A stretch of DNA of 64,000 nt from an uncultured Solirubrobacteraceae bacterium. GTDB lineage: Bacteria > Actinomycetota > Thermoleophilia > Solirubrobacterales > Solirubrobacteraceae. Position 1 is the first letter of the stretch; each line of letters starts with the position of its first letter. Of the stretch, positions 21,788 through 43,600 are shown piece by piece. Location: positions 14,455 through 78,454 of the forward strand of contig CAVTLZ010000002.1 of the NCBI GenBank assembly GCA_963735705.1. The letters are read 5' to 3'. The notes under the pieces were generated by a model. It saw only the letters and a list, made by a program, of their open reading frames with translations, was not told the origin of the DNA and did no database searches. The translations under genes were made by a program, and so were the position numbers.

Positions 21788-22834
21788 ATGGGCATCTTCA
21801 GCTATCTGACAGGGTTCGGCGGTCGCGACATGGCGGTCGACCTGGGTACGGCCAACACGCTCGTGTACGTCCGCGGACGGGGCATCGTCCTGTCCGAGCC
21901 GAGCGTCGTCGCGATCGACTCTCGCACCGGCGAAGTGCACGCTGTGGGGATCGAGGCCAAGCGCATGCTCGGGCGCACGCCGGGCACGATCCAGGCGATC
22001 CGCCCCCTCAAGGACGGCGTGATCGCGGACTTCGACGTGACCGAGCAGATGCTCAGGCACTTCATCCAGAAGGTCCATCAGAACCGCTGGGCGCACCCGC
22101 GCGTGGTCGTGTGCGTGCCCTCGGGAGTGACCGGCGTGGAGAAGCGCGCCGTCGAGGAGGCGTGCCTGTCGGCCGGCGCGCGCACCGCGTATCTGATCGA
22201 GGAGCCGATGGCCGCGGCGATCGGCGCCGGACTGCCGGTCGGCGAGCCAACGGGCTCGATGGTCGTCGACATCGGCGGCGGCACCTCCGAGGTCGCGGTC
22301 ATCTCGCTCGGCGGGATCGTCGTCTCGCAGTCGATCCGCGTCGGCGGCGACGAGATGGACGAGGCGATCATCAACTACGCCAAGAAAGAGTACAAGCTGC
22401 TGATCGGCCAGCAGACGGCCGAGGAGCTGAAGCTGGAGATCGGCTCCGCGTGCCCGATGGCCGAGGAGCTGCAGGCCGAGATCCGCGGGCGCGACATGGT
22501 CGCCGGCCTGCCCAAGACCGTCGTGCTGACCAGCGAGGAGATCCGTCAGGCGCTGGAAGAGCCGCTGAACCAGATCATCGAAGCGGTCAAGGAGACGCTC
22601 GACCGCACCCCGCCGGAGCTGGCCTCGGACATCATGGACCGCGGCATCATGCTCGCCGGCGGCGGCTCGCTGCTTCAGGGCCTCGACGAGCGCCTGCGCG
22701 AGGAGACGCAGATGCCCGCGCACCTGGCGGAGTCGCCGCTGACGTGCGTGGCGGTCGGCTCGGGACGGTCGCTGGAGGAGTTCGAGGCGATCCACCGCTC
22801 GAACCGGACCTCGCGCAACCGCCGCCGGCGCTAG
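21788..22834 (+). CDS. mreB: Rod shape-determining protein MreB
   Basis: [40 protein letters not shown]. Confidence 0.98.
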
Positions 22835-22901
22835 CTGGGTGCGACGACCCGCCTGTTGCCTGGGTACTCTGTCGAGCTAACGCTTCGGAAGGTAGTCATC
22901 G

Positions 22902-23843
22902 GTGCCCGATAAGACGGTCCGGCGTCGACGAGCGCTCCTCGGGCTGCTCGTCGTGCTCTCCCTGCTGCTGCTGACGGCCTACTTCGGTGAGGCCCCCAAC
23001 GGTCGCCTGCACGCGGTGCAGCGCGACTTCCTGACGGTCGTCTCGCCGCTGCAGGACGGCGCGAACAAGGCCCTGAAGCCCGTGCGCGACCTGTTCGACT
23101 GGTTCGGCAACGCGCTGCACGCCAAAAGCCAGCTGGCGCAGTCGCTCAAGCAGACCGAGCAGCTGCGCCGCCAGCTGGTCGCCGACCAGGCCGAAAAACG
23201 GACCGAGCATCAGCTGATCGCGCTGTACCACCTCGATCAGCTCGGCGTGAACGACTACCGTCCGGTGACCGCCGAAGTCGTGTACAACGCCCCGAACATC
23301 TGGTACTCGACGGTCACGATCGACAAGGGCGAATCGGCGGGGGTGCGAGTCAACGACCCCGTGATCGACGGCGAAGGCCTCGTCGGCAAGGTGGCTCAGG
23401 TGGCATCCGATGGCGCCCTCGTCGACCTCATCACGGACAGCTCGATGGGCGTAACGGCGAGGATCGGCACGAGCAATGCCACAGGGCTCCTGCAGCCCAA
23501 AGTGGGCGAACCCGGCGATCTGCAGCTGCTGTACCTGCCCGCCAACCAGGCCAACGTCGGCGAATACGTCGTCACCGCCGGCACGGTGGCGCCTCCACCG
23601 TACGGATCGCTGTACCCGCCGGGGCTGCTGATCGGAAAGGTCAGCTCGGTCAACGAAGAAAGCGCGTACGAGTCGGTCACCGTGCGCCCGTTCGCCAACC
23701 TGCACGACCTCGGCATCGTCCAGGTGCTCACCTCCGGGGCGGGGACGCGTCCGTCGAACCTCAGCCAGCTCGCCGCCAGCCTGCCGGCGGGACAGAGCGC
23801 CCCCAGCGGCGAACAGCTCGCCTCCACGCAGGTGGGCGGATGA
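22902..23843 (+). CDS. mreC: Rod shape-determining protein MreC
   Basis: N-terminal TM, coiled coil, TIDKG...GV...PVI..GLVGKV, LITD, P.GL.IG.V; operon position. Confidence 0.93.
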   Translation: MPDKTVRRRRALLGLLVVLSLLLLTAYFGEAPNGRLHAVQRDFLTVVSPLQDGANKALKPVRDLFDWFGNALHAKSQLAQSLKQTEQLRRQLVADQAEKRTEHQLIALYHLDQLGVNDYRPVTAEVVYNAPNIWYSTVTIDKGESAGVRVNDPVIDGEGLVGKVAQVASDGALVDLITDSSMGVTARIGTSNATGLLQPKVGEPGDLQLLYLPANQANVGEYVVTAGTVAPPPYGSLYPPGLLIGKVSSVNEESAYESVTVRPFANLHDLGIVQVLTSGAGTRPSNLSQLAASLPAGQSAPSGEQLASTQVGG

Positions 23844-40523: not shown

Positions 40524-40628
40524 CCGCAGATGATTGCGCAGCCGACGGCCGACGGCATGTAACTACTGATACGAGACCGGGAAGCACACCGATGCCGGCG
40601 CCGGTCCGCGGCGCTTAGCTTCGGGAGC

Positions 40629-43600
40629 ATGCTTCATCTCGCCCGACTCTCGATCCTCCGGCCGAAGGGCGCGCTGCTCGCATGGGGCCTCGTCGCCGTC
40701 GTCCTCGCCGTGATCGGGCTCGGCGTCGCGCACTCGCTGTCGCCGTCGATCGTCGTTGTGCCCGGCACCGAGTCATCGCGCGCGCAGCAGCTCGCAAACG
40801 CGCACTTCGGGCCCACGCAGCTCGTGCCGATCCTGTTGCAGGCCCCCGCCGCCGACGTCGCGCGGCTCGAACGCCAGGGCCCGGGGCTCGTACGCGCCCT
40901 GGCCAAGCGCCCGCACACGCGCGTGCTCTCCGCCTGGGACGGTGGCGTCGCCGCCGAAGGGCTGCGTCCGTCGAGGACCGCCGCGATGATCGTCGTCTCC
41001 GTCGACCGCTCCGAAAAGGACGTCGTCGACTACGACCAGCCGCAGATCGAACGGCTCGTAGCGCATGACATCACCGGGCCGGTGCGCGCGAGCGTCACCG
41101 GTCAGCCGTCGATCGACCGCGCGCTCAAGAACGAAGCGCTGAGCACCGCGCTGCGCTCCGAGCTGATCGCCGTCGCGATCCTGTTCGTGCTGCTGCTGCT
41201 CGCGCTGCGCGCGCCGCTCGCCGCCGCCGCCGTCACGCTCGTCGGCGCCGCGACCGTGCTCGCCGCCTACGGGCTGATGGCGCTGCTCGCGCTCGTCATC
41301 GAAACAGACCCGATCGCCGTCGCGCTCGCCTCGATGACCGGGCTCGCGCTCGGCGTCGGCTACTCGCTGCTGATCCTCGACCGCTTCCACCAGCAGGAGC
41401 AGCTCCCCGACGCGGATCCGCGCGACGTCGCGCTCGCGGCCTCCACCGCAGTCGCGACGACCGGCCGCGCCGTGCTGTTCGCCGGCTCCGGCCTGATCCT
41501 CGCGCTGCTGCTCGCCACCGCGATCGCGCCGACCAAGATCCTCGTCTCGCTGGGGATCGGCGTGCTGCTCTGCTCGACGCTCGCGCTTGGCGGCGCCGTC
41601 GTCGTCATGCCCGCCGCGCTCGTCCTGTTCGGACGCCGCCTGATAGCTGCCCATGGCGCCGCGCCGGCGACGATCACGCGCGACTGGGATCGCCTCGTCG
41701 GCGCCGGTGTCTGGATCAGGCACCGCGCCGTCATCGCCGGCGCCCTGGCCACCGCGGCGCTGCTCGCGCTCGCGATCCCCGCGCTGTCGCTGCGGACCGG
41801 GCCGCCGGGCGTCAGTCAGCTGCCCGCCGGCAACCCCGCACGCAGGTCCTTCGAAACGGTCGCGCGCGTGATGGGGCCGGGCTGGCCGACCCCGTACAAC
41901 CTGATCGTCGTCAACCCGCGCGGACCGATCACCACCGCCGCCGCGCTTGAAGCGCTCGACCGTCTGCAGGAACAGATCGCCGCCGACCGCCGCGTCGCCG
42001 CCGTCACCGGCCCGGGCGAGCTCAGCGCGCAGACCAAGCCGCTCGGCAAGCTGCCGACCTCGCTCGCCGAATCGGGCAAGCTGCTCACCGGCGGCAAGAG
42101 CGACCTGCAGCGCCTGGTCAACGGACTCGGCCAGGCCGGCAGCGGCGCCAAGCAGCTGCAGAGCGGCCTGCGCTCGGCGAGCACCGGCGCCGGCAAGCTG
42201 CACAGCGGCTCAGGCAGCGCGCAGTCCGGCGCCGGCGAACTGCATGCCGGGCTCGCCGCCGCACGCAGCGGCTCGGCCAAGCTCTCCGCCGGCCTCAGCC
42301 AGGCGCTCGCCGGGGCGGGCGCGCTCAAGAACGGCGCCACGCAGGCGCTCGCCGGCTCGATCGAACTCGCCAACGGGCTCGGCTCCGCGCACACGCCCGT
42401 ATCCGCAAGCCTGCCGTCGCTGAAACAGCTCGCCGGGCTGACCGCGAGCACCAACAGCACGCTCGACGGCCTGCAGGGCCAGGCGCAGGGCGCCGCCTCC
42501 GACCTCGCCGGCGCGACGGAAGCGCTGCGCGGCATGAGCGCCGGCAAGAGCGACCCCCGCTATGGCGAAGCGCTCGCCGCGCTCGAACACGCCGCGGGCG
42601 CGCTCGGCGGCGTCACCAGCGGGCTCGGCGGCGTCGCACCGGAAACCAAGAGCGCCGCCGAAATCGCCGCCAGCGCGGCCACGCAGGGCTCGTTCCTGGC
42701 GAGCGCGCTCGCCCAGCTGCACACCGGCGCCGCGCAGCTGCAGGCGGGCCTCGCGAAGCTGCGCACCGGCGACGTGCAGCTAGCCTCGGGCATCGGCAAG
42801 CTTTCCGGTGGCAGCGGCGAATTGACGAGCGGGCTGACACAGCTGCGCGACGGCGCCGGCGCGCTCGAAACAGGGCTCGGCGAACTGACGAACGGCACCG
42901 GCCAGCTCGAAAGCGGGCTCGCCGGCGGCGTCTCGCCGACCGGCCAGCTCGTCAACGGCCTCGGCGTGATGCAGAAGAGCGTCGCCAAGTTCAGCGGCCA
43001 GCTGCCCTCGCCGAAGGAGCTCGAAGAACTGCACACGAAGTCGCCCGGGCTGTTCAACTCCGGCTACTTCCTGCTCGCCGCGATCGCCGGCGCGCCAGCC
43101 GCGAGCGCCAACGCCGCCGGCTTCACGGTGAACGTCACGCGCGGCGGCGACTCCGGGCAGATCGTCGTCATCTCCCGCTATGGCGCGAGCGCCTCGCAGA
43201 CCGCCGCGCTCGGTCAGCGCCTGGACCGGATCGCGCGCAGCTTCGCCGCGCGCAACCACCTCGAGGTCGCCGTCGGCGGCCCCGCCGGCGACCTCGCCGA
43301 CTTCACCAGCGCGACCAACGCGCGCCTGCCGTGGGTGATCGTCGCGCTCGCGCTCGCCGTCGCGCTGACGCTCGGGCTCGCGCTGCGCGCGGTCGCGCTG
43401 CCGATCGTCGCCGTGCTCTTCAACCTGCTCACCGCCGCCGCCACGTTCGGCGCCATGCGCCTGCTGTTCGGCGGCGCGCACCCGCCGTTGGGAGGCCCCG
43501 GATACCTCGATCCGATGTCGATCGTCGGCATCTTCACGACGATCTTCGGGATCTCGCTGATCTTCCTCGTCGTGCTGCTCGCGCGCACGCGCGAAGAGAT

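Follow-up and report, generated by a model that had tools for sequence, protein, structure and literature searches.

Glutamate codon choice follows the side of the membrane in a Solirubrobacteraceae subclade whose conserved GAA reader is a five-armed tRNA

Choosing between synonymous codons is assumed to leave the protein unchanged, and the known biases in their use act on genes, on regions of the mRNA or on signal peptides. The DNA considered here, a window of 64,000 nucleotides (contig C2:14455-78454) from the 4.06 Mb, 70% GC assembly of an uncultured soil actinobacterium of the family Solirubrobacteraceae, raises the question of whether the two codons of glutamate, GAA and GAG, fit this picture. 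In its mre operon, with all genes on the plus strand, mreB (21788..22834) encodes a cytoplasmic protein and has 3 GAA and 31 GAG codons (counts are written GAA/GAG hereafter, that is, 3/31). In contrast, mreC (22902..23843), with an N-terminal anchor and an outside domain, has 9/4, and mrdA (24441..26630), encoding the anchor and outside domain of PBP2, has 38/16. The remaining two genes are mreD (23840..24415; polytopic with short loops, 0/6) and rodA (26627..27862; 7/5). An original prediction, made from the sequence letters alone, had described MreB as GAG-coded and the adjacent MreC and PBP2 as GAA-rich, and the counts agree with it. Following this up, we find a codon pair that is split by the membrane side of the residue, is conserved almost as an amino acid would be, and coincides with the replacement of a tRNA by a five-armed form. 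The two ‘synonymous’ glutamate codons seem not to be equivalent in this clade.

The switch can be read inside single genes of the window. In rodA, the outside loop at 27311-27391 (QVERL...KEAEAKERETK) has five GAA and no GAG codons, and the conserved glutamates of PESDTDF and QQESK are GAG. An MMPL-type transporter (40629..44000, plus strand; 26/13) has a large outside loop at 41790-43310 with 17/3 and a C-terminal membrane and cytoplasmic part at 43311-43997 with 3/7. In a MacB/FtsX-like permease, which is encoded at 1659..2879 on the minus strand and so beyond the range 21788-43310 given in the original prediction, both glutamates of the cytoplasmic coupling loop TERTREI are GAG, and the outside domain has 12 GAA and 4 GAG codons. 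The original prediction had singled out all of these regions; its all-GAA rodA loop, its roughly 17 to 3 for the MMPL loop, its mostly GAG tail and its GAG-coded TERTREI stand, while ‘almost all GAA’ was slightly generous for the outer domain of the permease. It had also listed PBP2 glutamates that keep GAG (GLEYYY, LPSEF and the first of VEEGG), and the sequence reads that way. As a cytoplasmic control, the gene for RNase E/G (28028..30193, plus strand) has 7/69, and its Glu-rich, disordered and fast-evolving tail remains GAG.

How far does the split extend? Genome-wide, 3426 genes were called with our own codon-likelihood caller; transmembrane (TM) segments were taken from hydropathy and loop sides from the positive-inside rule, a crude predictor. 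The GAA fraction, defined as GAA/(GAA+GAG), is 0.131 in proteins without a TM segment (n=2275) and about 0.55-0.57 (0.548, n=318) in proteins with one N-terminal TM or signal segment. In the window, the genes of these two kinds have 114/676 and 209/213, respectively (Fisher p = 2e-38). Between the same two classes GAA rises from 0.13 to 0.57, AAA from 0.12 to 0.25 and AGG from 0.05 to 0.10, and no other codon family shifts. In particular, CAA, GAT, AAT and the four-fold xxA codons are used alike in exported and cytoplasmic genes in this genome-wide comparison. A general preference for A or T at third positions, or a relaxed codon bias in exported genes, was rejected since only GAA, AAA and AGG move. 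The comparison also shows Asp to be depleted in exported proteins. Codon context has an effect of its own, with GAA rarer before L, I, M and F and commoner before G, A, K and E. The effect of the compartment is nonetheless present in every context of neighbouring base or residue, and context was rejected as a cause because it merely modulates the choice.

Such a strong difference between gene averages could be expected if exported genes were a foreign or differently expressed class. We consider this explanation almost certainly wrong, as it is already refuted by what is seen within genes. A gene-class bias is a property of whole genes, whereas here the switch occurs inside open reading frames (ORFs) and between loops of one protein. 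In the long loops of polytopic proteins, the GAA fraction is 0.18-0.20 inside (0.176) and 0.40-0.44 outside (0.440), and the contrast persists within genes with a Mantel-Haenszel odds ratio of 2.0-2.4 (p = 1e-61 at 2.4). Inside and outside loops therefore differ genome-wide, as the original prediction required. Moreover, its exclusion of horizontal transfer holds: the contrast lies within one vertically inherited core operon as well as within single ORFs, is kept in all 80 relatives described below and involves one codon pair only.

Bitopic proteins switch at the TM segment itself, as three examples show with 3/18 on the N-side and 15/6 on the C-side, 3/19 and 30/2, and 2/11 and 17/2. A metagene of 149 proteins, classed solely by residues far downstream, gives a GAA fraction of 0.16 over the 20 codons before the TM segment; past the segment, the fraction is 0.54 over codons 0-5 and 0.69 over codons 5-10, and it then levels off near 0.7 through the mature part. 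No offset the size of the ribosomal tunnel (30-40 codons) is seen after the TM segment in this metagene. Flagellar type III substrates, which have no signal peptide, are also GAA-rich (flagellin 34/7, FlgK 25/7, FliD 28/8 and FlgL 17/7), and within flagellin the conserved glutamates of D0/D1 are GAG and the exposed variable domain uses GAA and AAA. A bias tied to co-translational translocation through the Sec pathway and the signal recognition particle would show a tunnel offset and spare the flagellar substrates; ribosome docking or Sec coupling was thus rejected as a cause. Clear Tat signals are too few in the genome to set Tat against Sec. Bacterial signal peptides are known for rare-codon and AAA bias, and both that bias and the present one are linked to export. 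However, the known bias resides in the signal peptide itself, whereas GAA is low before the TM segment, and the clade bias sets in only past the TM or signal segment and spans the whole mature outside domain. We infer that the GAA pattern follows the final location of the residue and not the gene, the mRNA or the export route. Given the sharp switch without lag, the loop contrast and the type III substrates, selection most probably acts through the finished protein.

The next question is whether the choice is maintained by selection at individual sites. The clade comparison covers 80 species-level loci from metagenome-assembled genomes of uncultured Solirubrobacteraceae (PBP2 60-91% identical), and the mre operon shows the GAA/GAG contrast in 80 of the 80. 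In PBP2, E51, E334, E428 and E701 are GAA in 80/80, and E222 and E281 are GAG in 80/80; the conserved outside glutamate columns of MreC have GAA in 73-76 species and GAG in none, and its cytoplasmic E30 is GAG in 76/76. For comparison, about 75% of the conserved columns for Ala, Val, Leu, Thr, Pro and Gly in the same alignments contain a mixture of the two main codons. This saturation of synonymous sites led us to reject phylogenetic inertia as the cause of the pure glutamate columns. These columns behave like the non-interconvertible AGC/TCG pair of serine, and mixed ones, e.g. MreB E258 (35/38), are few. Outside the membrane, GAA and GAG almost never interchange. GAA is maintained by selection where a glutamate faces the exterior of the membrane, and GAG where it remains inside or, on either side, where it is universally conserved or catalytic. 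The selection at residue level that the original prediction had proposed is thus backed by near-pure columns as well as by the bitopic proteins, the loops and the lag-free boundary.

Comparison with 103 distant PBP2 homologues characterizes the two kinds of site. The GAG sites are universally conserved glutamates (E222 in 98/103 and E281 in 103/103, also E511 and E694), in keeping with the original prediction; over these four positions Glu is found in 81-103 of about 101-103 homologues. At the GAA sites, other bacteria mostly have D, N, Q, K/R, G or S; pooled over these sites E is the top residue at 18%, and E334 is Glu in 78/103. The residues of sister genera at the conserved PBP2 GAA columns are D (21%), E (19%), Q (18%) and R (10%). 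The origin suggested for GAA sites, a lineage-specific gain from Asp, is only partly right, and Glu, Gln and Arg stand beside Asp in the sisters.

A non-adaptive history has to be weighed at this point. After the tRNA switch described below, a burst of substitutions might have made new glutamate codons in fast extracellular domains (e.g. from GAC to GAA) under relaxed selection. This would agree with the many lineage-specific GAA sites, at which sisters have D, Q, R, N, G, S or A, with Asp-type columns that alternate between GAC and GAA without GAG, and with the depletion of Asp in exported proteins. We nevertheless regard it as very improbable. Columns are GAA in 80/80 while other synonymous sites are saturated, and the column counts point to an outside GAA to GAG rate far below the neighbouring synonymous rate. 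Furthermore, ancestral codons of the Q, R, G and S types are not one step from GAA, no other A- or T-ending codon is enriched, and at least 80 species have stably kept the trait.

Taxonomically, the trait does not extend beyond one subclade of Solirubrobacteraceae, which comprises at least 80-120 species. The contrast is present in the organism’s own genus and absent in 18 other genera of its family in GTDB (PBP2 35-49% identical), as well as in one other family of the order, 6 genomes of the class and 12 of the phylum. Sister genera leave GAA and AAA nearly unused, with e.g. 0/35 in MreB, 0/33 in PBP2 and 1/50 in Rne; in the mre operon and rne, the 18 sister genera have 0-3 GAA per gene versus 30-60 GAG, the near-disappearance that codon capture supposes. 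These genera (loci L208-L226) shun GAA and AAA, often down to 0 per gene, despite canonical tRNA-Glu(UUC) and tRNA-Lys(UUU).

What, then, reads GAA in the subclade? Sister genera have both canonical genes, tRNA-Glu(CUC) and tRNA-Glu(UUC). The canonical tRNA-Glu(UUC) gene was not found in the organism’s own assembly, in the same-genus genome G024 or in 7 closed clade chromosomes. Instead, the sole conserved GAA reader of the clade is a 96-nt tRNA(UUC), encoded here at contig C8:107159-107254 on the minus strand. Its body is not that of a tRNA-Glu; the acceptor, D, anticodon (loop CUUUCAA) and T arms are standard, and a 7-bp hairpin capped by UUCG forms a fifth arm inside the D-loop. On the canonical tRNA model (RF00005; threshold 29) it scores 66.2 bits; the four regular arms all fit, and a 25-nt insert forms the fifth, D-loop helix. 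An exact match to the anticodon arm is seen in at least 120 species; all belong to the Solirubrobacteraceae or Solirubrobacterales, and many of the PBP2-clade assemblies are among them. Across 80 copies there are 8 variants; the five-helix fold is 100% paired over all of them, with 3 compensatory pairs, 2 of these in the extra arm. The full 96-nt form is present in metatranscriptome contigs, from runs that may include DNA, and no spliced joint was seen in those contigs. The surrounding order of genes is transketolase, hydrolase, tRNA, deacetylase and glpK.

Hence the canonical tRNA-Glu(UUC) is gone, and the only conserved UUC tRNA is a near-invariant, five-armed form. As in known reassignments, the cognate tRNA has been lost and the same anticodon sits on a different body, and the subclade with the trait coincides with the replacement of its GAA-reading tRNA. 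The data look like codon capture plus strong, residue-level and location-dependent selection on a formally synonymous choice. On this account, GAA would have nearly vanished and lost its decoder, a new decoder would have arrived and the codon would then have re-expanded.

Several further observations concern tRNA genes of this genome. The 3' half of the 96-nt tRNA is duplicated at C8:79926-79976 with 98% identity, and the duplication marks the roughly 27 kb between the copies (C8:79926-107159, loci L349 and L350) as an integrated element. Its cargo includes a tyrosine integrase, an insertion sequence transposase and a 2169-aa repeat or Rhs-like protein with 148 GAA codons; a prophage was considered and rejected. 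A second UUC tRNA-like gene, at C1:70849-70925, has a U1-A72 pair as in tRNA-Gln, two mismatches in the anticodon stem and the T-loop TCCGATC; it scores 45.8 bits on RF00005, occurs only in this genome and adjoins small antitoxin-like and ArsR-like ORFs. At C9:78441-78551 (minus strand) lies a 111-nt class II tRNA whose body resembles tRNA-Leu(CAA); it has a very long variable arm and the loop CTTTCAA (UUC), scores 51.7 bits on RF00005, was missed by ARAGORN, is likewise found only in this genome and adjoins XRE-type regulators. Both were rejected as the cause, being unique to one genome when the trait is clade-wide. Finally, a 73-nt class I tRNA with anticodon UAA at C12:579117-579189 is called ‘Leu’ by ARAGORN; its body is not Leu-like, and TTA is practically absent from the genome.

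Does GAA still mean glutamate? Columns were chosen by a residue present in at least 85% of 19-20 sister genera, which have hardly any GAA, and the clade codons in those columns were then counted. In cytoplasmic MreB and RNase E, the Glu columns (4093 cells) contain 171 GAA, 3858 GAG and 16 GAY (GAT or GAC) codons, and the Asp columns (2291 cells) contain 2 GAA, 4 GAG and 2278 GAY; cytoplasmic K, N, Q and R columns have about 0 GAA. Outside, in PBP2 and MreC, the universal Glu columns have 19 GAA, 296 GAG and no GAY, and the Asp columns have 126 GAA, 24 GAG and 716 GAY, with most of the GAA coming from two columns. Some cytoplasmic columns of invariant Glu mix GAA and GAG (MreB E257/E258 and E315; Rne 207 and 445). 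MreB also holds a cytoplasmic exception, E49 (window 21932-21934), which is GAA in 71/73 clade species and Glu in 19/19 sister genera, in a gene otherwise regarded as all GAG. The composition of PBP2 fits an acidic GAA residue: sisters have D 37.6 and E 31.6, and the clade has D 23.8, GAG 18.4 and GAA 29.7, so that with GAA taken as acidic the total is kept (69 for the sisters, 72 for the clade). The charge test alone is not decisive, since Arg declines as well and lineages differ widely in net charge. In the outside domains of the clade, Arg falls from 57.6 to 40.1 residues in PBP2 and from 24.5 to 11.9 in MreC; Asp is also depleted in these two proteins, and cytoplasmic MreB and RNase E are unchanged. 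Judged by its columns, GAA is glutamate or something very close to it.

This bears on the possibility that GAA has been fully reassigned to another standard amino acid (Asp via a non-discriminating AspRS, or Gln, Asn or Lys), which we rate as highly improbable. The loss of the canonical decoder and the arrival of a tRNA on a non-Glu body would suit it, as would the archaeal-type, non-discriminating AspRS and the extra LysRS paralogue of the clade (aspartyl- and lysyl-tRNA synthetases). Some Asp-conserved outside columns did become GAA (PBP2 E51, E603 and E672), and there is precedent in the ACA Thr-to-Asp reassignment of Acidimicrobiales via a non-discriminating AspRS (bioRxiv 10.64898/2026.05.03.722492). 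A reassigned codon should, however, align with a different amino acid in conserved columns, whereas cytoplasmic GAA appears in 2 of 2291 cells of Asp columns and 171 of 4093 of Glu columns, with K, N, Q and R near zero. E/K-rich helical stretches of flagellin make sense only if the GAA residue is acidic. The column test and these stretches together led us to reject Lys, Gln, Asn and Asp, and they contradict a cationic residue at GAA. By itself, moreover, reassignment leaves the partition between inside and outside unexplained.

If selection acts through the protein, the product of GAA must differ somehow from that of GAG. Our tentative reading is therefore that a protein-level difference between the two products lies behind the pattern; we reach it by elimination and hold it with rather less than even confidence. 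The five-armed tRNA would deliver at GAA a residue not fully equivalent to the plain Glu that tRNA-Glu(CUC) brings to GAG, perhaps a mixture resembling glutamate, or a glutamate that was altered on the tRNA. Such a product would be favoured at extracytoplasmic, mostly exposed positions, and critical and cytoplasmic glutamates would keep GAG. A bolder version, in which GAA is the codon for a twenty-first, glutamate-derived or glutamate-like residue that the five-armed tRNA carries, by synthesis on it or by charging, to extracytoplasmic protein surfaces, seems to us unlikely.

A number of points weigh against a difference between the products. The argument for it proceeds by elimination. Clade genomes have one glutamyl-tRNA synthetase (GluRS) each (the lack of gltX in the organism’s own assembly is an assembly gap), no obvious Glu-modifying enzyme was found in them, and no enzyme partner adjoins the 96-nt tRNA in its conserved surroundings. 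The interchange of GAA and GAG at some invariant-Glu cytoplasmic columns is what true synonyms do. Lys AAA shifts in parallel, though less strongly, with a tRNA-Lys(UUU) of canonical appearance. The five-armed chassis also occurs in viruses with other anticodons, so the extra arm is not obviously a Glu-specific handle. Lastly, the topologies come from the crude hydropathy and positive-inside predictor and from our own gene calls.

Much of this would suit the main alternative, in which GAA carries plain Glu and the choice is selected through the decoding of the odd tRNA, i.e. its speed, pausing or error spectrum, with the safer GAG kept for critical glutamates. We take this to be possible, though on the doubtful side. 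GAA occupies Glu positions and is exchanged for GAG in some cytoplasmic columns, there is only one GluRS, and AAA shifts without a new tRNA. GAA is also avoided at universal Glu both inside and outside (outside, 296 GAG versus 19 GAA), as expected of a less accurate codon, and is rarer before hydrophobic residues in both compartments. Decoding effects sit poorly, on the other hand, with the absence of a 30-40 codon lag after the TM segment, with inside and outside loops that differ within the same mRNA, with flagellar type III substrates that share the bias and with the fast-evolving cytoplasmic RNase E tail that stays GAG. In addition, pure GAA columns in the face of a strong bias towards G or C at third positions need strong selection per site, which small kinetic or error effects rarely supply. 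The reading by a difference between the products also has to be placed among known systems.

In Streptomyces, bldA and its codon TTA are an instance of a rare codon and a dedicated tRNA controlling a class of genes. The clade resembles it in being a high-GC actinobacterium with a rare A-ending codon and a single dedicated tRNA. However, the bldA system controls a few regulatory genes, each as a whole, whereas the clade has thousands of codons that are split by topology, with cytoplasmic domains avoiding GAA within the same ORF. Odd-shaped tRNAs and special residues are likewise joined in tRNA-Sec (selenocysteine), tRNA-Pyl (pyrrolysine) and the tRNA-dependent conversions of Asp to Asn, Glu to Gln and Ser to Sec. 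As with tRNA-Sec and tRNA-Pyl, the clade has a dedicated, strongly conserved, non-standard tRNA and a codon restricted to particular proteins. Unlike them, it uses a sense codon in place of a stop, has only one GluRS beside the dedicated tRNA, with no dedicated enzyme or elongation factor identified, and its alignments point only to a Glu-like product.

The nearest parallel in codon choice comes from secreted effectors of the fungus Magnaporthe oryzae, whose mRNAs are reported to be enriched in AAA, CAA and GAA in dependence on U34 tRNA modification (bioRxiv 10.1101/2025.11.10.687658). Both cases have GAA and AAA enriched in secreted proteins and tied to U34-type tRNAs. The fungal bias, as reported, is a gene-level, translational control in a eukaryote and includes CAA, whereas in the clade CAA is unaffected, the switch lies within genes and the choice is fixed by site. 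Codon reassignments are also on record for Arg codons in high-GC bacteria (Shulgina & Eddy 2021, PMC8629427), besides the ACA case above. The clade shares with these, and with capture as framed by Osawa and Jukes, an A-ending codon that is near-unused in relatives, a lost cognate tRNA, a foreign-body tRNA in a monophyletic-looking clade and a re-expansion; it departs from the described reassignments in that its conserved columns are still Glu, with no demonstrable change of meaning, and its re-expansion is limited to residues outside the membrane. Full-text literature searches returned no description of codon choice by membrane side, nor of a bacterial tRNA with a D-loop arm.

If the product of GAA does differ from plain Glu, the clade would be a natural expansion or splitting of a bacterial sense-codon box. 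If the product is plain Glu, the pattern would be a strong and hitherto unrecognized connection between the choice of tRNA and what becomes of extracellular residues. In both cases, it provides a free topology marker for thousands of uncharacterized proteins from a soil lineage that is abundant but uncultured, a natural and orthogonal-looking tRNA scaffold, and a directly testable case of how a genetic code can start to change.

Some features of the synthetases are worth recording in their own right. A second LysRS gene (contig C12:522398-523966) is clade-specific. Its product is 85% identical in a same-genus genome but only 47-54% identical to the one LysRS that sister genera have. Residues of the lysine pocket known from solved LysRS structures are changed in it (ELY to EFM, and N-x-F-x-E to S-G-D-T-E). 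Directly downstream, up to C12:527526, are genes for a lysine 5,6-aminomutase-like alpha subunit and a B12-binding beta subunit (KamD/KamE-like) and a 380-aa ORF. The clade AspRS is of the archaeal, non-discriminating type, with 435 aa, and outgroups at the level of the order have the bacterial type; the AspRS loci are C12:630183-631490 and C12:61919-63196. The bacterial type is missing in other genomes of the genus, and in this assembly it is either a copy without the N-terminal anticodon-binding domain or one with too short a start call.

Phage-like contigs (L430:3503-3599, L429 and L431:2236-2331) bear the five-armed chassis with anticodons CCU (for AGG) and UGC (for GCA), and the UGC form lacks the G3-U70 pair required for alanine identity. 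On L431, the product of 7748-9154 (minus strand) is a LysRS-like protein of 468 aa that is altered at the same pocket positions as the second LysRS. No connection to GAA could be made for the LysRS paralogue, the AspRS or the viral chassis. Should GAA nevertheless specify a twenty-first residue, the phage-borne chassis beside a LysRS-like enzyme with an altered pocket would look like a portable recoding module.

Other genes of the window show the bias to varying degrees. The strongest case is an exported protein of 611 aa (52162..53997, plus strand) with 43/4 and an AAA/AAG count of 15/10. Two further proteins are exported or anchored, one of 525 aa (3763..5340, minus strand; 25/6) and one of 411 aa (37113..38348, plus strand; 16/9). 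Elsewhere in the genome, among HExxH motifs there is one clear zincin (C12:64666-65577) with GAA at the catalytic Glu; this protein is otherwise GAG-coded and probably cytoplasmic. Back in the window, a 366-aa ORF at 11553-12653 (plus strand) has no predicted TM segment, yet counts 21/11 for GAA/GAG and 15/8 for AAA/AAG; by the codon rule its product is probably exported, with the signal peptide missed through the start call.

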